Source of the DNA: Eledone cirrhosa | Lineage: Eukaryota | Direction: 5' to 3' | Length of the DNA stretch: 64,000 nucleotides | NCBI GenBank assembly: GCA_964016885.1 | Contig: CAXHJY010001118.1 | Location: 1 to 64,000 of the forward strand | Shown here: positions 1-60,240 of the stretch, one piece after another | How the letters are laid out: every line of letters starts with the position of its first letter | How positions within the stretch are numbered: position 1 is the first letter of the stretch | Notes under the pieces: generated by a model | The model's input: only the letters and a program-made list of their open reading frames with translations | The model's database searches: none | Told to the model about the DNA's origin: nothing | Translations under genes and position numbers: made by a program

Positions 1-102
1 CAGAGCATTTATTCCAATTTCTAATTTCTGCCGGACCGGCAACCGCTCTTTCAAACCAGTTCCTGTACACGGCTAAGTATTCTATAAGTCTCTAGCTGTG
101 TC

Positions 103-191
103 ATTCTCGATAAAAGCACTGGATATGTAGTCCTGATGATTTCTAACAAGAATGAAACGCGTAGATTACTTCCCTTGCTTTTGTCGAGAAT
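103..191 (+). ncRNA. Type I hammerhead ribozyme, array copy 1
   Basis: Stem I GTAGTC(127-132)/GATTAC(164-169); core CTGATGA(133-139); stem II TTCT-aaca-AGAA; GAAA(154-157); palindromic mini stem III ACGCGT; GUA site at 161-163; distal stem I 103-118/176-191. Confidence 0.85.
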
Positions 192-412
192 CTAATTGTA
201 ATACGTGACGTATTCTATTCTATAGCGATTAGGTCTTCAAAATGTTTATTATAAACATACAGAATATTTTCGAATATTCTATGTCTATATTCACATATAT
301 ATCGCTATTTCAGAGCATTTATTCCAATTTCTAATTTCTGCCGGACCGGCAACCGCTCTTTCAAACCAGTTCCTGTACACGGCTAAGTATTCTATAAGTC
401 TCTAGCTGTGTC

Positions 413-501
413 ATTCTCGATAAAAGCACTGGATATGTAGTCCTGATGATTTCTAACAAGAATGAAACGCGTAGATTACTTCCCTTGCTTTTGTCGAGAA
501 T
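413..501 (+). ncRNA. Type I hammerhead ribozyme, array copy 2
   Basis: Same motif offset +310. Confidence 0.85.
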
Positions 502-722
502 CTAATTGTAATACGTGACGTATTCTATTCTATAGCGATTAGGTCTTCAAAATGTTTATTATAAACATACAGAATATTTTCGAATATTCTATGTCTATAT
601 TCACATATATATCGCTATTTCAGAGCATTTATTCCAATTTCTAATTTCTGCCGGACCGGCAACCGCTCTTTCAAACCAGTTCCTGTACACGGCTAAGTAT
701 TCTATAAGTCTCTAGCTGTGTC

Positions 723-811
723 ATTCTCGATAAAAGCACTGGATATGTAGTCCTGATGATTTCTAACAAGAATGAAACGCGTAGATTACTTCCCTTGCTT
801 TTGTCGAGAAT
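723..811 (+). ncRNA. Type I hammerhead ribozyme, array copy 3
   Basis: Same motif offset +620. Confidence 0.85.
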
Positions 812-1032
812 CTAATTGTAATACGTGACGTATTCTATTCTATAGCGATTAGGTCTTCAAAATGTTTATTATAAACATACAGAATATTTTCGAATATTCT
901 ATGTCTATATTCACATATATATCGCTATTTCAGAGCATTTATTCCAATTTCTAATTTCTGCCGGACCGGCAACCGCTCTTTCAAACCAGTTCCTGTACAC
1001 GGCTAAGTATTCTATAAGTCTCTAGCTGTGTC

Positions 1033-1121
1033 ATTCTCGATAAAAGCACTGGATATGTAGTCCTGATGATTTCTAACAAGAATGAAACGCGTAGATTACT
1101 TCCCTTGCTTTTGTCGAGAAT
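1033..1121 (+). ncRNA. Type I hammerhead ribozyme, array copy 4
   Basis: Same motif offset +930. Confidence 0.85.
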
Positions 1122-1290
1122 CTAATTGTAATACGTGACGTATTCTATTCTATAGCGATTAGGTCTTCAAAATGTTTATTATAAACATACAGAATATTTT
1201 CGAATATTCTATGTCTATATTCACATATATATCGCTATTTCAGAGCATTTATTCCAATATATATATATATATATACATATATATATACAT

Positions 1291-5930: not shown

Positions 5931-5959
5931 AGAAAATGACTTTTTTTATATATATATAT

Positions 5960-5996
<37 letters not shown>

Positions 5997-8820
5997 CAAA
6001 AAACGTGACAATCACCTGATCACCTATAGATCCGGGGAACACACAAGCCAGGTAGATTATATCCTTACCAGAAGACGTGACAGAGTGTCTGTTGTAAACA
6101 CTAAATCCCTCCCCCATGAAGAATGCACCTCCCAACATAGACTGATAATTAGCGACCTCATAGTCAGGACGAGACGTACTCGACAGCAGAAGAGGACTAT
6201 CCTCAGGAGGAAAATATGGAAGCTAAAGGACCCCACAGCCAGAAATAAATTTCAAAGCATATTACTTGATGCTTTCGACAGTAAGGAAGAGCATCTAGAG
6301 TCGGACAATATAGAGGGACAGTGGGAATTTCTGAAAGCAAACCTGCTGTTGGCGACAGACGAAGTCTGTGGCTGGAGCAGGCCTGTAGGCAGGAGGAGAG
6401 TAACATGGTGGTGGAACAGTAAGGTGGAGGGGTCAATTAAGGCCAAAAAGCAGGCTTGGAAAGTATGGCGGGATGGGGGAAGTAGAGTAGACTATCAAGT
6501 GGCCAGGAGGGAAGCTAGGAGAGAAGTGTACTTAGCAAGAAGGGAAGCTGAGGAAAGAAAGTTCAAGCATGTTCTACAACGCGATGACCAAAAACGTGAG
6601 GTGTTCAGGATTGCTAGGCAATGCGTCAAGGAAAACCGTGATATTGTCGGAGAGAAGTGTGTACTTAACGATGATGGCATACTTGCCATCACCGACACTG
6701 ATAAGAAGGTAGCTTGGAAGTGTCACTATGAAAGGCTACTAAATGAGGAGAATAAATGGGAGAAAGACAGTCTCCCCCATATCGACCCAATAGAGGGACC
6801 AGCAGTGTTAGTCGAGGGGAGTATAATAAGTAAGGCAATCAAGGATATGAAAACGGGTAAGGCGGCTGGGCCTTCGGAAATAGTTGCTAAGATGCTGAAG
6901 GCATCTGGCACGGTGGGACACACCATGGTCACCCGCATAGTTAACCAAGTCGTACAGAATGGGGTTGTTCCGAAGGACTGGCATAGCAGCATCATCGTTA
7001 ACTGTTATAAGGGTAAAGGAGACGCCCTAGATAGGAGTAACTATAGAGGCATTAAATTAATCGACCAGGTCATGAAGGTCACGGAAAAAGTAATAGCGCA
7101 ACTAATCAGAGAGAGAATTGACCTAGATGAAATGCAGTTCGGGTTTGTGTCAGGAAAAAGCACCACAGACGCTCTTTTCATAGTACGACAACTACAGGAG
7201 AAGTACCTAGCTAAAGGTAAACCCCTCTACTTAGCTTTTGTCGACCTGGAGAAAGCCTTCGACAGAGTCCCCCGCTCCATTATCTGGTGGGCTCTTAGAA
7301 AACTAGGCGTTGACGAATGGCTTGTGAGGGCTATACAAGCCATGTATAAAGAAACAGTCAGCAAGGTTAGAATTAACAACGAATATAGTGAAGAGTTTAG
7401 CGTAAAAGTTGGCGTCCATCAGGGCTCTGTTCTCAGCTCCCTACTATTTATTATTGCCCTTCAGGCTATAACAGAGGAGTTCAAGACAGGCTGCCCATGG
7501 GAACTCCTATACGCAGACGACCTGACACTCATAGCGGAATCAATGGCCGAGCTAGAGAAGAAATTCCAAACATGGAAGCACGGCCTAGAGTCAAAAGGAC
7601 TTAAAATTAACCTGGCTAAGACCAAAGTTCTAGTTTGTAGGAAAGAAAACAAGGCGGCGGTCCCTTCTGGGAAATGGTCGTGCTTGGTGTGTAGGAAAGG
7701 CGTAGGTAGAAACTCCATTTTATGTCCTAAATGCAAAGTATGGGTGCATAAAAGATGTAGTGGGATCACAGGTAAGCTAACTAAGAACATAGATTTTACA
7801 TGTGGCCGGTGTTCTGGTGCAATAAGTAGCAGCAAGTGCCCACAAAATACTAGCTCTTTCAATTGCGCAGAGGGTTCTATAGAAATAGTGGACAGCTTCT
7901 GTTACCTGGGCGATAAAATCAGCAGTGGGGGAGGGTGCTCTGAAAGTACTGTAGCTAGAGTCAGAACTGGTTGGAAAAAGTTCAGAGAGCTTATACCACT
8001 ATTAGCTGCTAAAGAGTTCTCCCTAAAAATGAAAGGCAGGTTGTACGATGCCTGCATACGAACAGCAATGTTGCATGGCAGTGAGACCTGGGCATTGTGT
8101 GCAGAGGATATACGCAGACTAGAGAGGAACGAAGCTTGCATGCTCCGCTGGATGTGTAACAGTAATATACGTGAACGGCAAAGCATAAACGAACTAAGGA
8201 AAAAATTAGAGATAAGAGGGATCAGATGTTGTTTACTCGAGAGAAGGCTACGTTGGTATGGACACGTGATGCGCATGAAAGTCGATAGCTGTATAACAAA
8301 GTGCAGAGCAATAAAGATAGACGGTAGCCACGGAATAGGCAGACCTAGAAAAACCTGGGACGAGCTGATAAACTCCGACCTCACACACTTACACCTCTCC
8401 AAGACAATGTCACTGGACCGAGACCTTTGGCGGTACTCAGTAACAGAGAAGACCCGCCTTGCCAGTAGGCATCTCTAACAAAATATACCCCGTCCCACCA
8501 CCGCCACCCCATCCACACCACCCCGTTCTATGTAAAGTTATGTTGGTGCCGCGCCATCCAGGCCGAAACAAATGAGATCGTGTAGGTGTCACGACAAAAA
8601 AACACACAGTCCACGCTGTAATGTGGCCGTGTAGGCAACACGGTAAAAACCTCCCAGACCCACACTGTAAATGTGGTTGGTGTTAGGAAGGGCATCCAAC
8701 TGTAGAAAACCTGCCAGACAGTCCTATGCGAGCAAGACAATCACTCTTGCCTCAAGTGGGACTACCCCCGTCCAAACCCATGCAAGCGTGGAACACGGAC
8801 GTTAAACGTTGATGATGATG
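5997..8820 (+). mobile_element. Young 5'-truncated RTE-clade LINE
   Basis: Uninterrupted ORF from the C-terminal end of the APE domain through RT; 3' UTR ends in (GAT)n; TA-rich flanks. Confidence 0.96.
6085..8478 (+). CDS. RTE LINE reverse transcriptase ORF (APE C-terminus, RT, PHD-like finger); no true start, frame is open from ~6001
   Basis: Motifs NYRGIKL, QFGF, FVDLEKAFDRV, GVHQGS, LLYADD, FCYLG, GRPRKTW; upstream in-frame HLITY..QVDYIL. Confidence 0.93.
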   Translation: MSVVNTKSLPHEECTSQHRLIISDLIVRTRRTRQQKRTILRRKIWKLKDPTARNKFQSILLDAFDSKEEHLESDNIEGQWEFLKANLLLATDEVCGWSRPVGRRRVTWWWNSKVEGSIKAKKQAWKVWRDGGSRVDYQVARREARREVYLARREAEERKFKHVLQRDDQKREVFRIARQCVKENRDIVGEKCVLNDDGILAITDTDKKVAWKCHYERLLNEENKWEKDSLPHIDPIEGPAVLVEGSIISKAIKDMKTGKAAGPSEIVAKMLKASGTVGHTMVTRIVNQVVQNGVVPKDWHSSIIVNCYKGKGDALDRSNYRGIKLIDQVMKVTEKVIAQLIRERIDLDEMQFGFVSGKSTTDALFIVRQLQEKYLAKGKPLYLAFVDLEKAFDRVPRSIIWWALRKLGVDEWLVRAIQAMYKETVSKVRINNEYSEEFSVKVGVHQGSVLSSLLFIIALQAITEEFKTGCPWELLYADDLTLIAESMAELEKKFQTWKHGLESKGLKINLAKTKVLVCRKENKAAVPSGKWSCLVCRKGVGRNSILCPKCKVWVHKRCSGITGKLTKNIDFTCGRCSGAISSSKCPQNTSSFNCAEGSIEIVDSFCYLGDKISSGGGCSESTVARVRTGWKKFRELIPLLAAKEFSLKMKGRLYDACIRTAMLHGSETWALCAEDIRRLERNEACMLRWMCNSNIRERQSINELRKKLEIRGIRCCLLERRLRWYGHVMRMKVDSCITKCRAIKIDGSHGIGRPRKTWDELINSDLTHLHLSKTMSLDRDLWRYSVTEKTRLASRHL

Positions 8821-9610: not shown

Positions 9611-9642
9611 GGCACAGTCTGAAGCTAAAGCATACATATATA

Positions 9643-10453
9643 CAGGGTGCGAACAATATTTGTTTGTAATTTTCAACTGCTAATTTTATGCAATTTTTTT
9701 TTACTTCAGTTGTCACTCTTGTCTTCATAAAAACAGTGACTATATTTCCATTATTTATTTTCAGAATAATTGATTATGAATAATTTTGAACCTCCAAATT
9801 TGTGGAAGAGACACAGAGTTCTTCTTAGAATCCGCGCCGGGAGGACAAATAAGACCAGAAGATCAACTCCCAGAACAACAGGTGGCTTGCTGTCTCATCC
9901 AAAGATGTGCCCAGAGTCATGCAGACAAAGTTTCCAGTGACAACATTGGTCTTAGGTGTCGTCAGCAGTCAAGGTGACGTCATGCTACCTCACTTCTTCC
10001 CTGAGGGCCTCAAGCTGAACACCGATGGCTACATCCGCGTTCTGAGCGAGGTAGTAAAGCCCTGGATTGACCAGGTAGCTGTAGATAGGCTGTACATGTG
10101 GCAGCAAGTCTCAGCTCCCTGCCATACCAGCCGAAAGACCCAAGCCTGGCTGTCAGAGAACTTCATCGACCACACTTCACCTGACATCTGGCCTCCCAGC
10201 TCGCCTGACTGTCCCCTCGACTTCTTTGTGTGGGGCGCAGTGGAACAAGACACCAACAGATCTAGCTGTAGCCGGTTCTGAGGCCGCCTTGAGGCCGTGA
10301 TCAAAGCCAATGGCGGGTTTATCAAGTGAGATTGAAAGAACAAGTCATGAAGACAAACTGACCCAAGTTTGATAAATAAATCTTAAAAAATAAAACTACT
10401 GTGTTATTTTTTCCTAGACAGTAATCTTGCGAACAAATATCGTCCGCACCCTG
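9643..10453 (+). mobile_element. Internally deleted Tc1/mariner transposon, DD37D (maT-like)
   Basis: TIRs CAGGGTGCG..ATATTTGTT with TA flanks; ORF 9907-10281 has WQQ(V)SAPCH and WPPSSPDC-PLDFFVWG; 36 residues between the last two catalytic positions, consistent with 37 after one lost codon. Confidence 0.88.
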
Positions 10454-10469
10454 TATATATATATATATA

Positions 10470-10800
10470 TAGTATGCACCACCCCACCCTCATATGCATC
10501 TCTCGTGAGAACAGGTTGTAGCATACATCCAAGAAAGCCTCCAATCCACACTGCAGAGTGGTCATGATGGCGACAGGACAAAAAGCACCCAGCCCACACT
10601 GTGAAGTGATTGTGATGGAGACACAGCAAAAAAGCACCCAACCCACACTGTAAAGTAGTCGTGTAGGTGTCACAACAAAAAGCACCCAGCCCACACTGTA
10701 AAGTGGTCATGTAGGTGGCATGACAACAAGCACCCAAGACACACTGTAAGGTGGTCATGTAGGTGTCACGAAAAAAGGCGCCCAGCCCATATTGTATAGA
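10470..10800 (+). repeat. RTE/SINE 3' UTR-derived ~50-bp tandem subrepeats
   Basis: cacactgtaaagtggtc...aaaaagcacccagcc repeated about five times. Confidence 0.75.
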
Positions 10801-10859
10801 AAAAGGAATAACATTTTTATAGTTACAATGGAAGCCAGTTCTTTAGAAGGTGCTTCATG

Positions 10860-11330
10860 GTGTGGAGACAGTAAGAGAAGAATTCTAGATGGGTATTTAA
10901 AGTTTTATTGTTGGTGTAAAGTTTAGTAAGTATCAAACACACCTATCATTGCATAATCTGCCAACTTTGAACCCATTTATATAGGTTGAGATTGTTCAAT
11001 TATCTTCCATTTAATAGAGAAGTTTCTGGTCATGTCCTTGAGTTGTCATATTTTGTTTGACAAATTAGTGCTATTTCTTTTATTTGGTTATTTCAAAGTC
11101 GATTCATAATTTAGGAAACCATTTTTACAATGACTTTCTGACATATCCTCATATGTCCAGGTGTCATTTTGATGGTGTTGATTCAATGAAGAGATTTCAG
11201 CTTCATTTATTATCGCTGGGGAGTTGCATTGTTGATCCAATGGGCATAACTTTAGCTTTTTATATGAACATCCTTATGTTTGGGGACTTTGGTTTTTATT
11301 TAAGAGGTGTGATTTCATGTGTATGGACAT
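10860..11330 (-). pseudogene. Penelope-like element GIY-YIG endonuclease remnant
   Basis: Manual translation CPLDQQCNSP...NYESTLK*PNKRNSTNLSNKI*QLKDMTRNFSIKWKIIEQSQP/YINGFKVGRLCN, homologous to 28401-28945. Confidence 0.82.
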
Positions 11331-11374
11331 ATATATATGTGTGTGTTTATGTATGTGTGTATATATATATATAT

Positions 11375-11810
11375 AAATATATGAATGTATATATAGTGTA
11401 TTTGGTAATACACTGTATGTTTAATTAAAAGAATTTTGAAGACCTTACGCTATTGTTTTAAAGTAGTGATTATGTCACTTACTTCTTTTTTCAACAAACA
11501 AAGGGAGATAAGCTGACAGATCTCTGTTTCATACTGTTGGTATTCCTCAGAGCTTAGCACTCCCCTTGTCTGTTGAAAATTATGAATGTTGGATTCTTAT
11601 AGAATTCCAGTAATAATCAGGAACTGATTATACAGAGCGGTTGCCAGTCCAGGAAAAATTGAAAATTAGAATTGGTGCTCTGAAATAGCGATGTATATAT
11701 GAATGTATATATAGTGTCTAAAAATGCTTTTAATTAAGCATACAATGTATTACCAAATACACTATATATACATTCATATATACATCGTTATTTCAGAGCA
11801 CCAATTCTAA
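11375..11810 (-). mobile_element. Diverged homolog of the 310-bp array unit (minus strand), followed by an inverted partial copy (~11725-11810, plus strand)
   Basis: gagcggttgcc, gctctgaaatagcgat and ttttgaagacct..cgctat match the reverse complement of the array unit. Confidence 0.85.
11488..11579 (-). ncRNA. Type I hammerhead ribozyme with full stem III
   Basis: Minus strand: TAAGCT-CTGAGGA-ATAC caaca GTAT-GAAA-CAGA ga TCTG-TC|AGCTTA, plus a ~20-bp distal stem I. Confidence 0.9.
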
Positions 11811-11885
11811 TATATATATGAAGTATTTCCGTAGAAAGGGTAAAGGAAGGGAGAGTGCTCTATGTATGCTACGGAGCTATTTAAT

Positions 11886-12070
11886 TATGTAATAAACAAC
11901 ACAAAACAATTATTCCATTTACCAAAGGTTTCATGAAGACAGGTGAGCTCAACAGAGACGTCTGAAATTGCTCATCAGAACTTTCTGATTTCAGACGTCT
12001 CTGTTGAGCTCACCTGTCTTTGTGAAACTTTTGGTAAATGGAATAATTGTTTTGTGTTGTTTATTACATA
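11886..12070. repeat. Long hairpin (83-bp arms) overlapping a partial hammerhead-like core
   Basis: Arms 11886-11968 and 11988-12070; minus strand CTGATGA-GCAA...GAAAC-CTTTG-GTA with weak stem I. Confidence 0.85.
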
Positions 12071-12202: not shown

Positions 12203-12343
12203 TGAGAAGATTCAGGACCCCGATGGCTGAGCTCCGGCTGTTTTGACAGCTAGATCCTAACAGATCTAGCTGTCAAAACAGATCCTAACAGATCTAGCTG
12301 TCGAACGGCCAGAGGTCAGCCTTCGGGGTCCTGAATCTTTTCT
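12203..12343. mobile_element. MITE with nested inverted repeats
   Basis: gaagattcaggaccccga / tcggggtcctgaatcttttc; a related end lies at ~44120-44170. Confidence 0.75.
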
Positions 12344-13110
12344 TATTACCCACTCTACTACCCCAAGTATCAAGTACTCTGGTGCATTGTGGTCCACCTA
12401 GTATCTTATCACATCCTCTTTGTTTTATATATATATATAGTTGTCATGGTTTAAGTGTTTACTTGATTGTGGGTGTTGCATTTGAACCTTTTCAATCTAT
12501 AAACTTAGGCTGGCATGGCATCATCAAACACTATTTTGCATCTACGTAGAGGTTACACACGAAAACTTAAGTTATTGATATGGTTTAATGAGAAACATCC
12601 ACATATCATCAAATCATGTACAAAGTAAGATTAGGCTATGATTAATTCAATGTAAAGGTGGGTGTTTATTGGTTATCAGCCCACTCCTGTTTATTCATTT
12701 TATTTTCTAGGCTAATACAGAGGAGTTTAAACTGTATATCTGTGGAAACTCCTCCCCATTTGATCAGTACAGGTCTTTCAATTTCTTTTCTCAATCCATT
12801 CACTTTAACTGTCATAATGGGTTATATAAGATTTAAATCGAGTATAATCAGGATTTTTAATACACAAAGTTTTAGTCAACCTTTTTTTATATTTTATAAG
12901 TAAGTATGAAGCCAAAACCAAGTTCTATGCCTTCAACAGTCCTATGCCTTCAACAATATTTTTAACGATTATATATGTATTAAGATATACCTATAATGCA
13001 TTGGTATATGATTATATGATTTGTTTGTTACAGCTCACACCTATGCAGGTTTAGCTGGCCTCCTCCAAGGTATATCTCATTGGAGGTGTCTTGGGTGATT
13101 TAATGATAGG

Positions 13111-13268
13111 GACCCCTGTCCTATCATCTCATTTCTACAGCTGAGTAAACTGGAGCAATGTGAAATAAAGTGTCTTGCTCAAGGAAACAACACATCACCT
13201 GGTCCGAGAATTGAATTCACAACCTTTCGATTGCAAGCCAAATGCTCTAACCACTAAGCTATGCACCT
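13111..13268 (-). mobile_element. SINE family A (head and body only)
   Basis: Near-identical to 1482-1638. Confidence 0.88.
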
Positions 13269-15004: not shown

Positions 15005-16365
15005 TTAATTTAAGTTGATTACTATTTAACGTTCATAAACCATTCTTGAATGAATGGTTTGATAGATATCTGGAGAATTTAAATGGTAATGACAGATTTG
15101 TTTTATATTAAAGAACTAAGGATCAACTTTCTTATTTCACATTACTGAATAGAAATATTGCCCAGCTTTTATACAGTATCTATCTGTGCAGTTGTCTTAA
15201 TCTCAATTGTATCAAATTAAAATAACATCTGAAGAATTGACTGGTAAAATAAACGGAGGAAGTCGAGAGAATCAAGGCTGAGTTAGAATAGATTTTCATA
15301 ATAGATCTTGCTAGTGGGCCTGAAGCAACTTCAATGAAGAACTGTTACATACATATTTTCTAGGAAGCATGAAAAATTATAACTATTAAGTAGACAATGT
15401 TTCAGCTCCTGATAAGTTACCAATTCTTTTACTACCATGCTATTAGATACTGTTTCTCAGAAAAAGACAGAGAACACACATAGTGAAATTAGGTACCAAA
15501 AGAAGAGTACAGTTAAACATTGGTTATCTGAATATCAAATATCAGAATTTTGGATTATCTGAACAAGATCTGTGTGTAATTAAATAAACTTTAGAATAAT
15601 ACTGGCTATCATTTTGTCTTTTGCTTACAGTGATTAGAAATGAATTTGAATTATAGAAAAACATAAAAACGTTACATCAAAGAAATGTTTCAGACACTAT
15701 GATCATGTCTTTTGTTTACAGATTTCAAAAGTATTATGTTGAGCAGTTTGCTAGTTTGATCTTAGTAGGTCACTTTAAACAGTGTTCAAATTATTTTAAC
15801 ATAAAAATAACTGACATACTGAAATATTTAAAGGAATGGCAAAACCAGTATTATTTGTTATAAGTAAATGAGTTTGTTGTTGTTACTATGTCTAAAGGGA
15901 AAGCAAACACTATTGACAATTGGATATAAAAACAAGATTTTATATTTAGATTGCAGTGGAAAGGCATCAAAGATTACATAGGAGTACAATATTGTCTCAT
16001 AAAGCTTCTGTTTGCAAGCTTTTTTTATGTAATTATCTTTTGTATAGCTTCCTTTCAGATCAGTTACCCATCTTGTTTGAATAATTGAGGTTTGTTAGAA
16101 CAGCCTTGTACATGTTAAGTATTGTAAAACTATAGCAGTGAGAGACTTGTACTAAAAGATTTCAAACATTATCTAATGATTGTCTTTATAAGAGCTTTCA
16201 GTAATTATAAGTAATTACATGCACCAATAAATGTTGACATTTCATAAAGAGATGTGTGAAGATATTTTTAAATTGATAAAAACTGTAAGGATACCATTTT
16301 ATATACTGCTGTAACATACAAATGGCTTTAGATATCTAGAAACTAGATTAAAACATCCTACTTAC

Positions 16366-17533
16366 CTGAATTTTCATTTGTCATGGACTTGCTAGCACCT
16401 TCTATCTTTTCTGTTGCTTTGGTATCTTCACCAGTGATGTCATGATTTGTTTCGTCAAAATTTGTTTGTTTAACTATATTTTCTTCTGAAATATTTCCAT
16501 CTGCACTGTCATTAGATTTAACTTCCTGAAGTGTATTGGCACTATTCACTATTTCATTAGTTTCTTGCAAAGAACTAATAATAGTTGATTCACATATAGC
16601 TTCTGGAACAGAGGACTGATTGACTTTTTCAGCATTATTACTTGAACTGGTCTCATAATCGGTTGATGCAGCACAGTATTCTGAAACAGTTTTTGTATCT
16701 GTTTCAACATTTTCTTTTGAAATACTACTAATGCCTTTAGCTTTTGTTTGAATGAGTTGTTCAGATTTTTGTGGAATATTATCAAAATTTGATCCACTGC
16801 TTCGACTTTGGAAAAGGTTTTCCAGCATTTTGGCTCTAGATGACATATCTGATTTACTCATTCTATTTTCTATTACATTATCAGTATCTGCATTCGTTTT
16901 GGGGACAGTGCCTTTCATATTATTTTCCTCAAAATTTCCAGATTCTAACTGTGGATATGAATTTGAATGTTTACTGTCATGGTCTACAACAGATTTTGCC
17001 ATGTCAGTGCTCAAAGTTGAAGAGAAATTATTTTGTTGGTAACTATTTTCAGTAACAGCTTTAGTAATTGTTTCTTCTAGTTTATGTATTTGGCCACTGT
17101 CTGGAGTTTTATGAGCAGTTTTCTTCATTACATTTTTATTACTTGTGTTTTTAACTACTGGATATTCAAAGTCGTTTATTTTATTTTCTATTGGTTTAAT
17201 AATAGATTTAGTTTGACCAGTTGTCTTCAGAAGAAATTTACTCACATTTTCTTTAGCATCTCTGTCAACAGTATTTGCAATTTCTGCTCTAATATCATCA
17301 ACAGTACTTCTGCTTGAAAATTCTTGGATTAGCATATGGCCTTTTGCTTTTCCTGGCATCTTTTTTAAATTTGGTGCTTCACTTTTTACCTTCTTAATGT
17401 CTTCATAACCATTTTGTAATTGAGGATAAGATTCAGTTTCTTTATCCACAACATCTTTGATGTGATTTGAATCGGGTCTTTTATTTTCAGTATTTACCAC
17501 AGCGGATGAAATGGGTTCAGTCTTTTGCTTGTA
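16366..17533 (-). CDS. Large internal exon (1168 nt, phase 0 to 1) of an unidentified host gene; S/T/N/E/K-rich, probably disordered
   Basis: 389 open codons in AT-rich DNA; acceptor ctaacttttcttcag|TAC, donor TCAG|gtaagt. Confidence 0.85.
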
Positions 17534-17894: not shown

Positions 17895-18982
17895 CTAAGA
17901 TGCAAATTGATCAACTGGGATGAAGTGACCATGAACTACAAATGAGCAGTTGAACCCTTGGTTTGAAAAATGCAGGATCTGAAAGGTAATGCACATATAA
18001 TGAGAAGTTTTCAGGCAAACTTTACCCACAATTCCTCGAGGAACCCAAGCTAATCTGATCAATCCTTGCCTTGAAAGACTTTTATGTCTGGATCCATAAT
18101 CTGCAACCAAATTTTACTACTAATATGCAAGTGCACTTGACTAGTGGTGATGCTGATGCTGTGAAACCAACTTCTTGAAAAGAACTCCAATAAATTCAAT
18201 TGTCATTCAGACATATTATTGAAACAACAGAAACTAATTGTCAGAGTCTTTCCTAACATTCACATCAGACAATATGATCATAAATGGATCTGCAAAAGAG
18301 CAATCAGCACTGAAGAATGTTGCTGTGAGAAAGTTGTTGGTCACACTTGTGGGAGAGAAAATATGCAACAAATTAATAGGCATAGCCACTTTGAAGGATC
18401 AGGTTGTAAATTATTCAATCAAATTCTGATCAACCAGAAACCAGCAGGAATCCCTCCACATTGTCTGATGCTAAAAGCTTGGGACATTGATTGTGTTACT
18501 CTGTGATCTAGATCCTCCAAAGGTTTTCAATGGCACAAAAGTTACCATCAAATATACATATCTTGTTTTGGCGGTCACAATCATGCCAAGAAAATTTGCT
18601 GGTGACAGCTGTTTAATTCTTAGTATACCACTGAAGCCAACTGGTTTACCATATGAATTTCAAAAGATTTAATTTTCTGTCAGACCTATCTGAGAAGAAT
18701 CTGATAGATTTATGTTGCAACTTCACAAATTAAGAACTTTCATGGTCTCTTCATTGTAGCACTACAGAGCAAAACCAAAAATATTTATTCCAAGGTTTTG
18801 GAATGAACAAATAAATAATCAAGGTCCTTTTAAAATAAATATCTAGCTGATGAAACTCATTTATGCCAGGCTGGCTGCCAATCCATATGCAAATGAGTTT
18901 CATCAGCTCATAAACATAAGCAGAATTCTATAAGAATCCAGCTTAATTTAGATTCAGCAAAGCCAGGGAAATATGTACTCGT
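17895..18982 (+). mobile_element. Decayed Helitron 3' part (PIF1-type helicase pseudogene)
   Basis: Fragments CKLINWDEVTM, FRQTLPTIPRGT, VFPNI..HKWICKRAI, PAGIPPHCLMLK, LLCDLDPPKVFNGTK, IPLKPTGLPYEFQK; stops and frameshifts. Confidence 0.85.
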
Positions 18983-19144
18983 GATACCACTAATGAGTCA
19001 GAAACAGTGGCATCGTCGATTACTTCCTCCTGCTTTTGCTGAAGCTAGGTATGTGGCGATCGGCACAACCTTAAAATTCATAACGAAAGGCCTTCCAAAT
19101 GTTTTTCACAAACATCCCATATATTATTAAATAGGCAATACATA

Positions 19145-19221
<77 letters not shown>

Positions 19222-22775: not shown

Positions 22776-24699
22776 CATCATCATCATCATCAACGTTTAA
22801 CGTCCGTGTTCCACGCTTGCATGGGTTTGGACGGGGGTAGTCCCACTTGAGGCAAGAGTGATTGTCTTGCTCGCATAGGACTGTCTGGCAGGTTTTCTAC
22901 AGTTGGATGCCCTTCCTAACACCAACCACATTTACAGTGTGGGTCTGGGAGGTTTTTACCGTGTTGCCTACACGGCCACATTACAGCGTGGACTGTGTGT
23001 TTTTTTGTCGTGACACCTACACAATCTCATTTGTTTCGGCCTGGATGGCGCGGCACCAACATAACTTTACATAGAATGGGGTGGTGTGGATGGGGTGGGG
23101 GTGGTGGTGGTGGGACGGGGTGTATTTTGTTAGAGATGCCTACTGGCTGGAGTAGGTTTTACTATATATTTAGGTAAGGCGGGTCTTCTCTGTTACTGAG
23201 TACCGCCAAAGGTCTCGGTCCAGTGACATTGTCTTGGAGAGGTGTAAGTGTGTGATGTCGGAGTTTATCAGCTCGTCCCAGGTTTTTCTAGGTCTGCCTA
23301 TTCCGTGACTACCGTCTATCTTTATTGCCCTGCACTTTGTTATACAGCTATCGACTTTCATGCGCATCACGTGTCCATACCAACGTAGCTTTCTCTCGAG
23401 TAAACAACATCTGATCCCTCTTATCTCTAATTTTTTCCTTAGTTCGTTTATGCTTTGCCGTTCACGTATATTACTGTTACACATCCAGCGGAGCATGCAA
23501 GCTTCGTTCCTCTCTAGTCTGCGTATATCCTCTGCACACAATGCCCAGGTCTCACTGCCATGCAACATTGCTGTTCGTATGCAGGCATCGTACAACCTGC
23601 CTTTCATTTTTAGGGAGAACTCTTTAGCAGCTAATAGTGGTATAAGCTCTCTGAACTTTTTCCAACCAGTTCTGACTCTAGCTACAGTACTTTCAGAGCA
23701 CCCTCCCCCACTGCTGATTTTATCGCCCAGGTAACGGAAGCTGTCCACTATTTCTATAGAACCCTCTGCGCAATTGAAAGAGCTAGTATTTTGTGGGCAC
23801 TTGCTGCTACTTATTGCACCAGAACACCGGCCACATGTAAAATCTATGTTCTTAGTTAGCTTACCTGTGATCCCACTACATCTTTTATGCACCCATACTT
23901 TGCATTTAGGACATAAAATGGAGTTTCTACCTACGCCTTTCCTACACACCGAGCACGACCATTTCCCAGAAGGGACCGCCGCCTTGTTTTCTTTCCTACA
24001 AACTAGAACTTTGGTCTTAGCCAGGTTAATTTTAAGTCCTTTTGACTCTAGGCCGTGCTTCCATGTTTGGAATTTCTTCTCTAGCTCGGCCATTGATTCC
24101 GCTATGAGTGTCAGGTCGTCTGCGTATAGGAGTTCCCATGGGCAGCCTGTCTTGAACTCCTCTGTTATAGCCTGAAGGGCAATAATAAATAGTAGGGGGC
24201 TGAGAATAGAGCCCTGATGGACGCCAACTTTTACGCTAAACTCTTCACTATATTCGTTGTTAATTCTAACCTTGCTGACTGTTTCTTTATACATGGCTTG
24301 TATACCCCTCACAAGCCATTCGTCAACGCCTAGTTTTCTAAGAGCCCACCAGATAATGGAGCGGGAGACTCTGTCGAAGGCTTTCTCCAAGTCGACAAAA
24401 GCTAAGTAGAGGGGTTTACCTTTAGCTAGGAACTTCTCCTGTAGTTGTCGTACTATGAAAAGAGCGTCTGTGGTACTTTTGCCTGACACAAACCCGAACT
24501 GCATTTCATCTAGGTCAATTCTCTCTCTGATTAGTTGCGCTATTACTTTTTCCGTGACCTTCATGACCTGGTCGATTAATTTAATGCCTCTATAGTTACT
24601 CCTATCTAGGGCGTCTCCTTTACCCTTATAACAGTTAACGATGATGCTGCTATGCCAGTCCTTCGGAACAACCCCATTCTGTACGACTTGGTTAACTAT
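22776..24699 (-). mobile_element. Young 5'-truncated RTE LINE, near-identical to 6937-8820
   Basis: ORF 23170-24699 differs from the first copy by about ten residues; same 3' UTR and (GAT)n tail; 5' junction abuts (TA)n. Confidence 0.96.
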
Positions 24700-24866
24700 A
24701 TATATATATATATACACACACATACCAGTACATTTTGGGGTTAGATAATCATTGTAAATCCACTAAGGATTGTGTACATGTTTTATTAAAAGTCGAATAA
24801 AGAGTATTTTATTGAACTCACTGTTTTGATAAAATAAATATATATTACATACATATATGAAGAAGA

Positions 24867-28181: not shown

Positions 28182-28394
28182 GAATATTAATTAATGGTTA
28201 ATTAGTCTCTAATACTTAAACATCTCAATGAGAGAAATCTCTCAGAGAAACAAGATTATGTATTAAAATCAAGTGACAAAAACTTTAATTATGGGACTAC
28301 TAACAAGATAGAATAGACAAAAAAAAAAATATTCTATATAACCATGCTGCCTTGCTAAAAGAAACAGTATGTATTATATCTTTATATCTAAGTT

Positions 28395-29020
28395 AAAGAT
28401 GTGATATGGTTCACACCATCTTTTGTACTTGATGTGAAAATTAATGTAGGTAGAAAATTCCTATCCCTCCTAAACCTCCACTTCCCTGTTGGCCATAAAT
28501 ACCTACATATATTCAATTGCCATACAGTGAAAATAGGCTACTTGTGTACCAATAACATTAAAACCCATATTACCAGCAAAAGTAAAAGCCCTCCACCATA
28601 TGGATGCCCACTAGACCAACAGTGCAACACTCCAGTGGTGATACATCAAGCAGAAGTTACCTCCATCAACCAGAACCACAAAACTGAAGCCTGACTTATG
28701 TCGGAACGACTGAGAGCTGGTTCAAAAACCAGTACATGAACCATGAAACATCCTTCAGAAAACCTGACCAAAAACATGCCACCCAGCTCACAAACCATAT
28801 ATGGAGCCTTAAAAATAACGGCACACCTTTTTCCATCAAATGGAGTATATTAGAAAAATCTACCCCCTATGTTAATGGAATGAAATTTTGCCGCCTATGT
28901 AACTCAGAAAAATGGAATATACTGTCTCAGCTGGCTTCAGATTAACACTGCTTAAATACAAGCCTTGACTGCTTTAGCCACTGTTCACATGAAATGAAAT
29001 ACATTCTGAGTAAATGATAT
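28395..29020 (+). pseudogene. Penelope-like element C-terminal/GIY-YIG remnant
   Basis: IWFTPSF..NVGRKFL..HFP..IFN..TVKIGY; CPLDQQC; YVGTT; NHETSF; IKWSILE; CRLCNSEK. Confidence 0.85.
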
Positions 29021-32520: not shown

Positions 32521-33199
32521 TATATACATATATTAATTTTTAACAGTGATAGCAGACATAGATACATCACACATCTTTCTAGCTGACACAATGTCCAGTC
32601 CAATTTATATCTGCCGTCACTGTTAGAAATTAATTCACACCACGAGGTATTCACACCACTTGGAACATGACAGATATAAAGGTATTTTGTACTTTATTGA
32701 AACTTGTACCAAAATCGATAGTTGGTAATCGATGATCACTTGCTTACATCAATTTTCAATCTGATTCTAGGGACTAAAATGGCAGTCGTAAGGAATATAA
32801 TAACTTTTCCACATTATAGTATATACGGTTTCCTAAATATTATATGCTTTTTATATAAATGTACAAAATACTATATGTTTCTTTAATGATATATGGTTAT
32901 ATACATACATTTTTAATTTGAATTATTGATCTGGACAAATGTCTATTGAGCTTTCTGCTGAGAAACATATTCATCATACATATATATGTCATGAAAATTT
33001 AGATTAGTATACATCATCAGCGTTTAACATCTATCTTCCACGCAAGCCTGTTACATACATATATGTGTGTGTGTGTGTGTGTGTTTCTGTGAGAGTCCCT
33101 GGTTTGATCGGGGGTAACCACAGTAAGTAAGGTACTCAATACATTAGTAGAGTGTAAACATCAAATTTCTAGTCCTGTAGAAGTCATTTCTATATTAAA

Positions 33200-38974: not shown

Positions 38975-41425
38975 GAAAGTCTGAACACTCAATGACAATG
39001 TCACAGATAAAGATAAATTCACCTCCCGTTGCAGGATGAGAATGCAAGGACCCCTCTTTATTTCAGACATGGATAACCAACATAATTCCGTCTCCCACAC
39101 CCCTCCCTGCCCCTCCAACCCATCCATTCCACTCTCCCAACTTCAGAGTTGGTACCATGAATGTAGGCACATTGAAAGGTCGCTGAAATGAGGTTGTAGA
39201 GATGCTTGAACGTAAAGAAGTTGGTGTTTGTTGTGTTCAAGAGACTAGGTGGAGAGGTGGGTCTGCTAGATTCATTGTGGGTAAAAAACGATGCTATAAA
39301 CTTTTCTGGGTGGGAAATGACAACGGACTGGGTGGAGTAGGAATTATGTTAGCTGAAAAATGGGTAGATAAGGTAATTGATGTAAATAGAGTTAATGACA
39401 GAATAATTAAAATAGGACTAGTTCTAAATAGAACTACTGTGACAATAATATTCGCTGATGCACCCCAATCTGGTCTACCTGACCTTATAAAGGATAGGTT
39501 CTATGAGTCGCTAATGCACTCTACCTCCCAAATAACCGACAGCGACTACTTAATTATTGCTGGTGACCTAAACAGTCACAAGTTTGACAACATAGTGATG
39601 GTTATGATGGAATCCATCGAGGCTATGGGTTTGGTACTAGAAATGAGGAAAGCTTCAGAATCCTGGAATTCTGTGACACTAATAACCTAACTATCTGTAA
39701 CACAAACTTCAAAAAATGAGAAAATCACTTGATCATCTACAGGGGAAGATGTGACAAAGTTGTAAACACTAAATCCCTCCCCCGTGAAGAATGCACCTCC
39801 CAACATAGCCTAGTAGTTAGTGACCTCATAGTCAGGAATAGATGTACTCGACGGCAGAGGAGGACTACCTTGAGGAGAAGAATATAGAAGTTGAAGGACC
39901 CCACAGCCAGTGACAAATTTAAAAGCTTATTACTTGATGCTTTTGACAGTAAGGAAGAGCAATTAGAGATGTACAATATAGAGGAACAGTGGGAATTCTT
40001 GAAAGTGAACCTGCTGAAGGCGACGAATGAAATCTGTGGCTGGAGCAGACATATTGGCAGGAGGAGAGTAACTAAGTGGTGGAACAGTAAGGTCGAGGAG
40101 ACAATAAAGGCCAAAAAGCAGGCTTGGAAAGTATGTCAGGTTGGGGGAAGTAGAGAACACTATCAAGTGGCCAGGAGAGAAGCTAGGAGACAAGTGTACT
40201 TTGCAAAAAGGGAAGCAGAGGATAGAAAGTTCAAGCATGTTCTACAACATGAGGACCAAAAACATGAGGTGTTCAGGATTACTAGACAAGGTGTCAAGGA
40301 AAACCGTGATATTGTCGGGGAGAAGTGTATCCGTAATGATAATGGTGTACTTGCCCTCACTGATACTGATAAGAAGGTAGTTTGGAAGTGTCACTACGAG
40401 AGACTATTAAATGAGGAGAATAAATGGGAAAAATGTAGTCTGCCCCAAATCGATCCAATAGAAGGACCAGTAGTGCAAGTTAAAGATAGTATAATAAGTA
40501 AGGCAATCAAAGATATGAAGACAGGCAAGGCAGCTGGGCCTTCAGAGATAGTTGCTGAGATGTTGAAAGCATCTGGAATGGTGGGACATACTATCGTCCC
40601 CGGATAGTAAACCAAGTAATACAGAATGGGGTCATACTAAAAGACTGGCATAGCAGCAGCATCATCATTAACTGCTACAATGGTAAAGGGGATGCTCTAG
40701 ATAGGGGAAACTATAGCGGCATTAAGTTAGTTGACCAGGTCATGAAGGTTACAGAAAGAGTTATAGCGCAACTAATCAGAGAGCGAATTGATCTAGATGA
40801 AATGCAGTTTGGGTTTGTGTCAGGTAAAAGTACCACAGCTGCTCTTTTCCTTGTACAACAACTACAGGAGAAGTACCTAGCTAAAAGTAAACCCCTCTAC
40901 TTAGCTTTTGTAGACCTGGAGAAATCCTTTGACAGAGTCCCCCGCTCCATTATCTGGTGGGCTCTTAGAAATCTAGGTGTAGATGAATGGCTTGTGAGAG
41001 CTATATAAGCCATGTATAAAGAAACAGTCAGTAAGGTTAGTTAACAATGAATATAGTGAAGAATTTAGTGTAAAAGTTGGTGTTCATCAAGATTCTGTCC
41101 TTAGCCCCCTCCTATTTATTATTGCCCTTCAGGCTATAACAGAGGAGTTTAAGATCGGCTGCCCATGGGAACTTCTATACGCAGATGATCTAACTCTCAT
41201 AGCTGAATCTATGGCTGAACTAGAGAAGAAATTCCAAACATGGAAGCATGGCCTAGAATCAAAAGGCCTTAAAGTTAACTTGTCTAAGACTAAAGTTCTA
41301 GTATGTAGAAAGGAAAATAGGGCACAGGTGCCCTCTGGGAAATGGCCATGCTCAGTGTGTAGGAAAGGAGTAGGTAGAAATTCCATTTTATGTCCCAAAT
41401 GCAAACTATGGGTTCATAAAAGATG
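38975..41425 (+). mobile_element. Degenerate RTE LINE with APE N-terminus, 3'-truncated inside the PHD finger (same family as 5997-8820)
   Basis: RVGTMNVGTL, CCVQETRW and IIAGDLN, then RT fragments with stops and frameshifts. Confidence 0.93.
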
Positions 41426-42284
41426 GGATATCTTGGCTAGGGCCCAACAGTTCAATGGATGAAGAAAATCTTGTGCCCTCTGTCTTACCGAAGCATATTA
41501 CATAACTCTATCACGACCTCTACCGATTAACGATAGAACGGAGGTAACTATTAGCTGTCAACATTGAAGGGCTAATTCCTTCGCCAACAGAATATTTGAC
41601 CCAACATAGTCATCTAGCCCCATTTTTACTTGTAGCTAATAAGTTAAATAGCTCTAACTAACTCAGATAATTATAAGTTACCTCCCTTACCTTGTCTCTC
41701 AATTAAAAAATTGGCACTTAACTATATACCCACAATTTCTAATCTCTCGGGGAGTTACTTCCCCTGAAACCACCCTTTAATTAGTAAGGTAAATATGTCC
41801 ATTGGCGGCCATCTTGTTACCCATAGGCAGATCTCACACAATGCAGCCTCGACAGAAGAATACTGCTCAACTATGACAGACAATCGATATACCCAGGACA
41901 CCACATATATGGAACATTACATTTAAATAATAATAATAATAATGAAATTATTGTGTAAAGTGCTCAGGTGCACTACAACTCGTCAATATAGTACATAGAA
42001 CAATACACAAATGTCACATTCTTTCCTTATTTTAATTTATATTCCTTTTGAAGTTTCGATGAGCTGCTCTATCTTTACCTATGTTAATTATTTTCAACTG
42101 AACCAGATCAATAATGATATATAATCATTTGATCCAGAAATATTATATGGAGTAGTGAAACAATTGTAAACGGACATTATTATTATTAATATTCTCTACA
42201 TTCCTTACTTCAAACTAAAATATGTTGACAATCTTTTAATAATGTCTTCCTTGTGAAATTTGTGGTCTTGTTTTGCTTAACTAA

Positions 42285-42317
<33 letters not shown>

Positions 42318-42320
<3 letters not shown>

Positions 42321-43630
42321 AAAAGGGAGATCTCTCTAACACCAACAACTACAGGGGGATCTCACTGACGTCACTTGTAGCAAAGATCCTCAACAGGATG
42401 ATTCTTAACAGGATCCAGCCTGAGATGGAAAAGAAGCTCAGAGACAACCAGAATGGCTTCAGAGAGGGAAGATCAACCACCAGTCACATCCTGATGCTGA
42501 GGAGGATATTAGAGGGAGCTAGAGCAAAGAGCCTTCCTGTGGTCATGGTTTTCATTGACTTTAGGAAGGCCTTTGATTCTGTTGACCGTCACTGCCTGAT
42601 GAAGATCTTACAGGCTTATGGAATCCCCAAGAAGATAGTGGACCTGATATCACTGCTCTACACCAACACCCAAGTCATTACACCTGATGGGATGACAGAG
42701 TTCTTTGAGATACTGGCTGGAGTGCTCCAGGGAGATACATTGGCTCCCTACCTTTTCATTATCGTAGTGGACTATTGTATGCGCCTTGCACTGAAGAAAC
42801 ACCAGGACTCTGGCTTTACTGTAGCACCGGCTCAGAGCAGGAGAGTTAAGGCGAAAAAGGTATCGGATGCTGAATTTGCCGATGACATAGTTTTGGTGAC
42901 AAATACAGTGAAGGAGGCAGAGGATTTGGTGCGGGAGGTTGAGACTGTGTCGATGAGTGTGGGGCTGAGAATGAATGAGACTAAAACAAAATATCTGGTA
43001 GAGAATGTTGAGAAGCCAGAGGGGATCACTAATGTAGGCGGGAAGCCGCTAGAATTGGTTGAGGGCTTCCTGTATTTGGGAGCAAAGATTGGGAATACGG
43101 AAGATGATGTGGTTGAGAGGAGGAGCAAAGCCTGGGTGGCATGTCACAGCTTGAGATTGGTGTGGAAGTCGGACCTTCATAAAGACCTGAAAATCCGCCT
43201 CTTCATTGCTGTAGTGGAGTCTGTGCTGCTGTACGGGTTTGAGACTTGGATACTGACCAAGAAACTCACTCAGATGGTGGATGGGTGCTACACGAGAATG
43301 CTGAGGATGGTTCTGAACATTAATCAGTATACACTGAGGATGAAAAACTCAGAGCTGTATGGGAGCATCCCAAAAGTCAGCTCAAAAGTGACACAGAGGT
43401 TAGCTGCACATGCTCACCGACATCCAGAGTTGACATTGCACTCAGTGCTCTTGTGGGAGCCCCTACATGGACACACTAGAAGAGGAAGACCAAGGTTAAC
43501 GTATGTTGATGCCCTAAGGACAGACACTGGTCTGTTGGAGACGCAGGACATGGCAGCAATAATGACGGACAGAGACCGCTGGAGAGAACTCGTCCATGGA
43601 TCTCGGGAATTTTACCCGCCTTAGATAGAT
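42318..43630 (+). mobile_element. 5'-truncated RTE/RTEX-like LINE (third family) with open RT ORF 42398-43624
   Basis: KGDLSNTNNYRGISL, QNGFR, FIDFRKAFDSV, GVLQGD, FADD, FLYLG, GRPR; (TA)n on both sides. Confidence 0.93.
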
Positions 43631-54820: not shown

Positions 54821-55202
54821 CATCATCATCATCATTTTATGTCCACTTTTCCCTGCTTGCAAGGGTGGGGCGGGAACTGATTCTGGCTTGATTTCTACAG
54901 CTGGATGCCCTTCCTAACACCAACCTCATTTACAGTGAGTACTGGGTGCCTTTTTGCCGTGGCACCTCCACGACCACTTTACAGTGTGTGTTGGGTGCTT
55001 TTTTGCCGTGGCACCTCCACGACCACTTTACAGTGGAATGATATGGACCCCAGTCCCTATCATCTCATTTCTACAGCTGAGTAAACTGGAGCAATGTGAA
55101 ATAAAGTATCTTGCTCAAGGAAACAACACATCACCCGGTCTGAGGATTGAACTCACAACCTTTCGATTGCAAGGCCAATGCTCTAACCACTAAGCCATGT
55201 GT
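54821..55202 (-). mobile_element. Full-length SINE family A with a 96-bp flanking direct repeat
   Basis: Flanks 54725-54820 and 55203-55298 match except for one base. Confidence 0.92.
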
Positions 55203-58195: not shown

Positions 58196-58586
58196 TAGTA
58201 CATACAATAATGTACAACTCATCAAGGGTGGATGTATAGTACATACAATAATGTACAACTCATCAAGGGTGGATGTATAGTACATACAATAATGTACAAC
58301 TCATCAAGGGTAGATGTATAGTACATACAATAATGTACAACTCATCAAGGGTGGATGTATAGTACATACAATAATGTACAACTCATCAAGGGTGGATGTA
58401 TAGTACATACAATAATGTACAACTCATCAAGGGTGGATGTATAGTACATACAATAATGTACAACTCATCAAGGGTAGATGTATAGTACATACAATAATGT
58501 ACAACTCATCAAGGGTGGATGTATAGTATATACAATAATGTACAACTCATCAAGGGTGGATGTATAGTACATACAATAATGTACAA
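58196..58586. repeat. 41-bp tandem repeat (~9.5 units) derived from a CR1 3' UTR
   Basis: Unit tagtacatacaataatgtacaactcatcaagggtggatgta; contiguous with the CR1 fragment. Confidence 0.95.
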
Positions 58587-59807: not shown

Positions 59808-60240
59808 AGGCGCATGGCTTAGTGGTTAGAGCATTGGGCTTGCAATCAAAAGGTTGTGAGTTCAATTCTCGGACTGGGTGATGTGTTGTTTCCTTGAGCA
59901 AGACACTTTATTTCACATTGCTCCAGTTTACTCAGCTGGAGAAATGAGATGATAGGACTGGAGTCCCTATCATTCCACTGCAAAGTGGTCGTGGAGGTGC
60001 CACGGCAAAAAAAGCACCCAGCCCACACTGTAAAGTGGACGTGTAGGTGCCACGGAAAAAAAGCACCCATTACTCCCTGTAAATGAGGTTGGTGTTAGGA
60101 AGGGTATCCAGCTGTAGAAATCAAACCAGAATCAGTTCCCGTATGAGCAAGACAAGGTCAGCCAACTGGACACTACCCACAACAGGACAACCCGTGCTAG
60201 CGTGGAAGAACGGACATAAAACGGTGATGATGATGATGAT
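59808..60240 (+). mobile_element. Full-length SINE family A
   Basis: ggcgcatggcttagtggttagagc..gagttcaattc head; RTE-like tail; (GAT)n end. Confidence 0.9.

Follow-up and report, generated by a model that had tools for sequence, protein, structure and literature searches.

The window analysed here, a stretch of 64,000 nt from Eledone cirrhosa, contains at 11377-11720 a short unit with a hammerhead ribozyme motif and, next to it, the remains of a GIY-YIG endonuclease of a Penelope-like element (PLE). The locus raises the question of what kind of element the unit is and what machinery copied it to its present place.

A type I hammerhead motif in a retrozyme-like unit

1 to 1258, plus strand: tandem array of a sister subfamily with 310-bp units, 4.1 copies, cut by the window start and ending at site b (see below) in (TA)n
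11377 to 11720, minus strand: the main copy, one retrozyme-like unit of about 318 nt with a 21-nt terminal redundancy (11715-11695 equals 11397-11377)
11488 to 11579, minus strand: type I hammerhead motif, predicted cut at 11515/11514
80 to 88, 11596 to 11604 (minus strand) and 18926 to 18934: TTCTATAAG box (TATAAG), present in each of the three family loci, where it precedes the core by 50-52 nt

A strict type I scan of the whole window on both strands gave five matches: the four array units, which are 100% identical and carry the hammerhead in every unit (4/4) on the plus strand, and the motif at 11488-11579 on the minus strand. The latter reads, along the minus strand, as a stem I arm UAAGCU (11556-11551), the core CUGAGGA (11550-11544), a stem II of 4 bp (AUAC/GUAU) with the loop CAACA, GAAA (11530-11527), the helix III region CAGAGAUCUG (11526-11517), UC at 11516-11515 in the GUC site, and the second stem I arm AGCUUA (11514-11509). 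Stem I is interrupted by a 3x1 internal loop, UGC/U in the unit and UAU/U in the array, beyond which it is extended by a further 20 bp in the 11377-11720 hammerhead. The stems, core, site and cut (11515/11514) named in the first-pass annotation all lie at the minus-strand places it gave, and the small internal loop that it considered similar in the two versions is 3x1 in both.

The motif has a CUGANGA core, GAAA, an NUH site and three helices with helix I open, as expected of type I, and its helix I of 6 bp with an internal loop and helix II of 4 bp have the canonical sizes (PMC4209133). The region folds with a z-score of -6.1, equalled by none of 200 shuffles. Counting against activity, the active fold is predicted at only about 4% of the monomer ensemble. 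Pair 10.1-11.1 is A-U, a state found in only 2 of 46 ribozymes of Hydra-type loci; these loci, the 80 best among 252 related ones from metagenomes, were selected for an intact ORF and scored for plus-strand ribozymes, and many of them are close kin and not independent. An Rfam search returned no hammerhead match for the motif; on the array it gave a match to HH9 below threshold (E 0.024; 18.3 bits, where the gathering score is 52). Matches of miRNA type in Rfam, all below threshold, were rejected as long hairpins and TA repeats.

The unit as a whole has the attributes of a retrozyme: a length within 150-450 bp, GC below 50%, no ORF and a single type I hammerhead. All six occurrences of the TTCTATAAG box in the window fall inside family copies. 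By analogy with newt satellite 2, the box is possibly a TATA-like internal promoter element; Hydra-type loci have no peak of TATA boxes at the family spacing (2 at 51-52 nt among 52 ribozymes, with a small peak at 41-42).

Compensatory changes between the two versions

The main copy aligns to the array unit with a score of 216, the maximum in 500 shuffles being 80.5, and with identities of 99/137 in the 5' flank, 47/86 in the ribozyme and 67/109 in the 3' flank, which bears out the earlier statement that its flanks are homologous to the 310-bp unit. Conservation is thus lowest in the ribozyme itself (about 55%), yet the core is intact. Among 31 aligned stem pairs, 12 are identical (including C15.2-G16.2 of helix III), 12 have changed on both sides and still pair, four have changed on one side, all of them pairing via G-U, and three are broken, all in the array version. 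The claim that every helix differs in sequence and still pairs therefore holds for the double changes, 12 of 13 of which pair, but not for the 12 of 31 pairs that are identical. Under a composition null (0.47 for each change) the 12/13 corresponds to P~8e-4, a count that compares two sequences in a register anchored on structure (core and cut site); MAFFT gives the identical ungapped register for the stem I arms. The compensatory changes that had been read from the sequence are accordingly real and go beyond a simple chance model; seven of the 12 sit in the 20-bp extension of stem I, which the earlier description did not contain.

Paired changes could also arise at the DNA level, if one arm of a long quasi-palindrome served as template for repair of the other or for a template switch, in which case the family would be a recombining satellite and its ribozyme a dead passenger. 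At 26 bp, the inverted repeat has the length that such arm-to-arm correction requires, the complete identity of the array copies is what DNA-level homogenisation would leave behind, and a third copy of the family has a dead core. However, correction at the DNA level would tend to erase G-U, yet four of the six singly changed positions retain it, and the core, GAAA, NUH site, 6-bp and 4-bp helices and 3x1 loop all survive at 55% identity. Nor would unequal crossover be expected to yield dispersed monomers with defined 3' ends. We regard this explanation as very improbable.

The hammerhead motif at 11488-11579 is thus confirmed as real and covarying, and it is predicted to cut itself. We infer that the selection implied by the compensated stems acts on the element and not on the host: selection on the element's own copying would let stems drift between subfamilies while the fold and the core stay. 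Compensatory variation among hammerhead families of one genome has been described before (PMC4209133).

Helix III in monomers and dimers

A hairpin loop needs at least 3 nt. The stem III of the first reading, CAGA/UCUG, would leave a loop of 2 nt, and helix III of the monomer must therefore be CAG/CUG with an AGAU loop. The same reading had taken the unit for a version better able to cleave as a monomer. The CAG/CUG hairpin is feasible, but the intermolecular duplex is far more stable: helix III of the unit is near-palindromic, with -12.2 kcal/mol for the self-duplex versus -1.8 kcal/mol for the hairpin, so that this version suits dimers too. In the array, helix III is minimal and palindromic (ACGCGU, next to a GUA cleavage site), with -7.5 versus 0 kcal/mol. 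One contig of run X4 lacks two letters at 11524, and a perfect palindrome would result. Self-complementarity of helix III down to a centre of 0-1 nt is found in 42 of 46 distinct Hydra-type ribozymes, CAGATCTG included, and the U.U at the base of stem II in the array is the commonest state among them (24/46). Judging from these predicted energies, the ribozyme of 11377-11720 is plausibly able to work alone while retaining a dimer signature. With its short helix III in the array and its long one in the unit, the family offers two naturally matched ribozymes on which monomer and dimer cleavage could be compared.

Two 3' ends, a tail and TA tracts

11665 to 11694, minus strand: sequence of the 30-nt tail inside the unit, directly after the homologue of site a; holds CGCT..GAGCAC
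11721 to 11811, plus strand: inverted 5'-truncated copy, the last 61 nt (3 mismatches) plus the 30-nt tail, to site b, then (TA)n
18859 to 19154, plus strand: a diverged third member of the family, in which the core is broken (GUGAUAC), ending at site a in (TA)n

The main copy is a monomer, one unit plus the 21-nt redundancy, and its 3' end lies at site a, running into (TA)n. The inverted copy terminates at the base homologous to the array end at 1258. The family therefore has two 3' ends, 28-30 nt apart: site a, used by the main and the third copy, and site b, used by the array and the inverted copy, the tail between them being 30 nt long in the inverted copy and 28 in the array. All four visible 3' ends abut TA tracts. 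A profile built from the three copies has nine matches in the window, all of which belong to the family (array, main copy, inverted piece and third copy). An octamer, ATGCAAAT, stands at 18887 upstream of the TATAAG box in the third copy, and likewise in the loose end of 16 contigs of run X1.

An inverted 5' copy and a tail of 30-40 bp at one end only are hallmarks of PLE insertion, and Hydra elements target (TA)n (PMC8557442); the family shows the inverted 5'-truncated copy, the tail at one end only and the insertion into (TA)n. In an Anolis element, the PLE tail is the stretch between two start sites of reverse transcription, and ends of this kind, two-site and tailed, are described as a feature of PLEs alone (PMC11167929). 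The inverted partial copy reported earlier is indeed present at 11721-11811, but it sits at the 5' side of the unit. Mobilisation by a PLE is the best supported explanation because the unit has the two-site 3' ends, the tail and the inverted copy; the endonuclease relic next door is not needed for this argument.

Copies in other contigs

In run X1, 6,669 contigs match 10780-11900 at 80% likeness, with a summed depth of 13,281-384,159 in bins across 11388-11805 (lowest over the ribozyme) versus 5-174 over the relic; contig depth is no measure of copy number and is taken solely as a sign of many copies. Beyond 11715, 39 X1 contigs continue with letters that resemble the 3' part of the unit itself, which is what tandem or permuted units would give, and nine of the 15 X1 joints listed (out of 37) connect opposite strands. 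Contigs of runs X4, X5 and X7, which carry three other organism codes, cross the ribozyme version of 11377-11720 with two to three other letters and one gap, and 340-nt contigs in X5 and X7 have loose ends that read as the array unit. The family pattern has no match in metagenome contigs. On sequence grounds, then, the repeat is multi-copy, and 11377-11720 represents a second subfamily of it in dispersed form.

One X1 contig equals the relic with 0 differences at a depth of 4.98. A link between relic and unit is absent among the joints listed (15 of 37), the between-letter rows listed (12 of 13) and the pieces listed (32 of 6,854), a weak negative; the lack of relic coverage in X4, X5 and X7 carries no evidential weight.

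The endonuclease relic next door

10832 to 11330, minus strand: GIY-YIG endonuclease relic of a Hydra-clade PLE, C-terminal part, 5'-truncated, decayed, in three frames
11329 to 11376: TA/CA microsatellite, 48 nt, between unit and relic
28200 to 29014, plus strand: second Hydra endonuclease relic, 322/515 identical to the first, starting at a CA/TA tract
41421 to 41591, plus strand: third Hydra endonuclease relic, following a broken-off LINE ORF

Hydra-clade elements combine a C-terminal GIY-YIG endonuclease containing CxCX5C, CxxC and CxH with RWK and DKT in the reverse transcriptase (RT), and Hydra-1_Obim from Octopus bimaculoides prefers (TA)n (PMC8557442 and its supplement). The relic at 10832-11330 bears the C-terminal endonuclease motifs (CxCX5C linker, CxxC, CxH) in decayed form, with three stops in the 116 codons of its main frame, two frameshifts and no adjoining RT. 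A HMMER search with it found 272 homologues at E<=0.001, and the CxCX5C linker is present in 101 of 148 examined, a count that excludes the top match P0004 and P0022, which have the look of repeat artefacts, and three translations from the window; a word-index protein search with the relic gave no match. One homologue of 720 aa (P0040) contains RWK, DKT, an RT-like core and a C-terminal endonuclease. The Pfam GIY-YIG model matches weakly in 3 of 15 homologues and does not match the relic. The window contains no piece of a Hydra RT, the relic being 5'-truncated. By eye, a 48-bp repeat at 10546-10796 cuts off the 3' flank of the relic, and 9640-10455 is a Tc1/mariner-like transposase relic with inverted ends.

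The first-pass annotation had placed the unit on the same strand directly upstream of a Penelope-like endonuclease fragment. The GIY-YIG relic is indeed on the same strand, but the 48-nt microsatellite, which is likely an insertion target, intervenes, and the ribozyme at 11488-11579 lies about 720 nt upstream of the relic's end. The ribozymes of the Hydra-type loci occupy two zones relative to the endonuclease end: 52 are found 75-519 nt downstream and 11 are found 2017-2512 nt upstream, with none at -300 to -1500 among the 66 loci with at least 900 nt upstream. A profile search found no family unit beside the relic at 28200-29014 or that at 41421-41591. The chance that a unit and a relic lie within 100 nt of each other is about 3% under uniform placement; if both kinds target TA tracts, the chance of sharing one of the 40 tracts is about 19%. 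The adjacency is weak evidence because the position at -720 is out of place, two relics lack a unit, and a shared TA tract is not improbable. Of the earlier proposal that a Penelope element is the partner, a PLE thus stands as the best explanation, but the argument from adjacency is weak, given the two relics in the window without a unit.

It might be argued that the unit is itself the pseudo-LTR (pLTR) of an autonomous Hydra element, unit and relic being one rearranged, internally deleted insertion. They lie on the same strand 48 nt apart, which under uniform placement has the low probability just given, the length of the unit is near that of Hydra-type terminal repeats (217-327 nt in L015, L023 and L028), and for 24 of 57 Xenopus retrozyme families a match to PLE pLTRs has been reported (bioRxiv 10.64898/2026.07.22.740005). 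Yet a ribozyme at -720 fits neither of the two pLTR places in the 63 plus-strand matches of the 80 loci, and the relic starts only after the unit has reached a 3' end of its own in (TA)n. Decay also separates the two: the relic differs from other X1 copies at 27/150, 39/275 and 23/143 letters (about 14-18%), far more than the unit differs from its inverted copy (3/61 and 1/51, i.e. 4/112). Moreover, the 3' flank of the relic at 28.2-29.0 kb has no family match, and a better Hydra signature is carried by another element at 11820-12068. A pLTR origin is therefore unlikely. Probably the relic entered the TA tract that it shares with the unit earlier, in an insertion event of its own, and is not the unit's ORF.

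An end hairpin of Hydra elements

11820 to 12068: a second element, an inverted pair arranged head to head and bounded by TA tracts; its minus strand holds the 3' half of a Hydra-type hammerhead, with GAAA at 11932

A GCTC..GAGCAC hairpin is found 36-54 nt after the cut in 31 of 50 distinct Hydra-type ribozymes, namely those with 100 nt downstream; 13 of the 50 enter TA repeats in the hairpin zone and six do neither. Loci with the hairpin include L002, L005, L011, L015, L026 and L040, and in several loci it recurs about 60-80 nt further on. The hairpin is a candidate for a protein-recognition or RT-start signal. Its four stem pairs are invariant in 26 sequences that were themselves picked by motif; since the stem never varies, covariation lends no support and the pairing is unproven. 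The hairpin is visible in a published Hydra consensus (PMC8557442 supplement), while 'hairpin' and 'stem-loop' do not occur in the main text of that paper, and we found no paper on the subject in a literature that was incompletely covered.

The element at 11820-12068 has this hairpin from 11877, 42 nt after the predicted cut, with a tail of about 67 nt, and gives the best match of the window to a covariance model of the hairpin (11844-11889, E 0.0085). A full hammerhead could not be assembled in it. As a possible Hydra-derived end it is more convincing than the 11377-11720 unit. The X1 depth over 11806-11900 is 46,369-82,119. Further matches of the model near TA tracts lie at 33121-33165 (minus strand, E 0.013) and 12340-12388 (plus strand, E 0.24), in both of which A-U replaces the first G-C pair, and a small inverted-repeat element is visible by eye at 12205-12345.

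In the family tail there is a loose look-alike, CGCT..GAGCAC, 140 nt from the cut as against 36-54 nt in Hydra elements. It is absent from the 14 matches of the hairpin model at E<=10, and the relaxed pattern that catches it was written after the tail had been seen. The link to the Hydra hairpin is therefore suggestive only.

This failure of the tail in the Hydra model would also suit a retrozyme moved by a Neptune or Naiad PLE, or by a LINE. Neptune and Naiad PLEs likewise favour (TA)n (PMC8557442), Naiad families with this preference are known from Octopus (its supplement), and young RT-bearing LINE ORFs of the window start beside TA tracts. On the other hand, unit and LINE copies have no sequence in common, all nine profile matches being family; canonical hammerheads are missing in Naiads (PMC8557442); and two-site ends with a tail, described as confined to PLEs, argue against a LINE, though not against another PLE clade. 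Such a mover is improbable to much the same degree as a pLTR origin.

TA tracts, LINE ORFs and tandem arrays are numerous in the window, which is AT-rich. Its LINE RT ORFs, which we take to be RTE-like, lie at 5932-8478 (plus), 23170-24762 (minus), 39187-41462 (plus) and 42320-43624 (plus); three of the four have a PHD finger after the RT domain, and several start at TA tracts. A host ORF at 16361-17530 has four matches, the named ones in Octopus sinensis (55%), O. bimaculoides (54%) and Argonauta (35%), which makes an octopod host likely. Tandem arrays occur at 50445-53377 (43-bp units, x69) and 58195-58586 (41-bp units, x9.6), in neither of which the type I scan found a hammerhead. Weak matches to a tRNA model (E 0.01-0.48) at 1575-1632, 13200-13267, 55140-55197 and 59813-59876 are likely copies of tRNA-derived SINEs.

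Probable mobilisation in trans

Taken together, we consider it probable that 11377-11720 is a non-LTR retrozyme copied in trans by a TA-targeting PLE, most likely of the Hydra clade, with the relic as a separate insertion; that a PLE of whatever clade mobilised it in trans is very probable. A multimeric transcript would be cut at each hammerhead, either by the monomer with its CAG/CUG helix or by dimers joined through the palindromic helix III, and the products would be unit-length RNAs, which a host ligase could close into circles. The RT/GIY-YIG protein of the PLE would then nick AT-rich DNA and start reverse transcription at one of two internal sites, the choice between which would produce copies with or without the tail. 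In an nhmmer comparison with the 80 Hydra-type loci the unit showed no sequence homology (best E 4.6).

A more far-reaching version, towards which we are rather doubtful, is that a retrozyme superfamily of roughly 10^3-10^5 copies, as contig depth might suggest, parasitises Hydra PLEs, with the hairpin as a clade signal that has shrunken in the family tail, and with two coexisting strategies, obligate dimers of the array type and monomers or dimers of the dispersed type. If this were true, it would name the cis signal that lets a retrozyme use the machinery of one particular PLE, and the partner would be testable in vitro.

Comparison with known systems

The class of element is known, likely a non-LTR retrozyme, and nothing indicates a host function. 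Nor is the idea of a PLE partner new, since retrozymes as passengers of PLEs have been proposed (PMC7229834) and the partnership is the title claim of bioRxiv 10.64898/2026.07.22.740005. So far, however, the partner of animal retrozymes has been proposed on co-occurrence and pLTR similarity, and how they move is the question to which this locus speaks. Its footprint of two 3' ends with a PLE tail, common to two subfamilies about 55% alike in the ribozyme, is undescribed for retrozymes in the literature examined, and the comparison of loci supplies a candidate recognition hairpin for Hydra PLEs.

The non-LTR retrozymes of mussel, coral and axolotl (Cervera and de la Pena 2020, PMC7229834) resemble the family in their AT-rich units of about 310-320 nt without ORF and with one type I hammerhead, in the occurrence of tandem arrays beside dispersed monomers, and in having more than one subfamily per genome. 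The mussel has two ribozyme families; in the axolotl, helix III is of unequal length in the two retrozyme families, the same contrast as between unit and array, and one of the two has a U.U at the stem II base (PMC7229834). The present family adds an octopod host, the in-register 20-bp extension of stem I, the two-site 3' ends and the inverted 5' copy, all of them here read from sequence alone. We found no report of cephalopod retrozymes in a literature that was incomplete and with some supplements outside the search; neither 'ribozyme' nor 'retrozyme' occurs in the available text of a paper on O. vulgaris repeats (PMC13282606).

Hydra PLEs, including Hydra-1_Obim (Craig et al. 2021, PMC8557442), are alike in (TA)n targeting, the inverted 5' copy, the tail and the palindromic helix III, and the family of the relic agrees with their endonuclease description. 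In contrast to them, the unit has no ORF and an end hairpin that is at best degenerate, and its stem I duplex is more stable, with -35.8 and -31.1 kcal/mol in the two versions versus -19.1 to -2.4 in 52 Hydra ribozymes. By eye, the ribozyme stems of Hydra-1_Obim in the supplement row differ from those of the unit; two of three family motifs are absent from the available supplement and the third gave one unrelated match, in a text where line breaks could mask others.

Xenopus retrozymes derived from PLE pLTRs (bioRxiv 10.64898/2026.07.22.740005) share the proposed partnership and the presence of monomers, dimers and multimers per family. That study concerns mainly vertebrates, and 'tail', 'mollus' and 'octopus' do not occur in its available text; in vitro, one of nine Xenopus dimers cleaved. 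The satellites of newt (satellite 2) and Schistosoma (Sm-alpha) likewise contain extended type I hammerheads and have internal promoters (PMC6155905, PMC2220036), whereas for the present family a promoter is suggested by the fixed position of the TATAAG box. The ends have a parallel in PAc, a Poseidon element of Anolis (Frangieh et al. 2024, PMC11167929), which has two RT starts downstream of its hammerhead, ends with and without a tail, and AT-rich targets. The PAc ribozyme required protein, and insertion in vitro could proceed without the ribozyme. The element differs from the octopod unit in being autonomous, in belonging to the Poseidon clade and in an AC-rich stem-loop inside its ORF.
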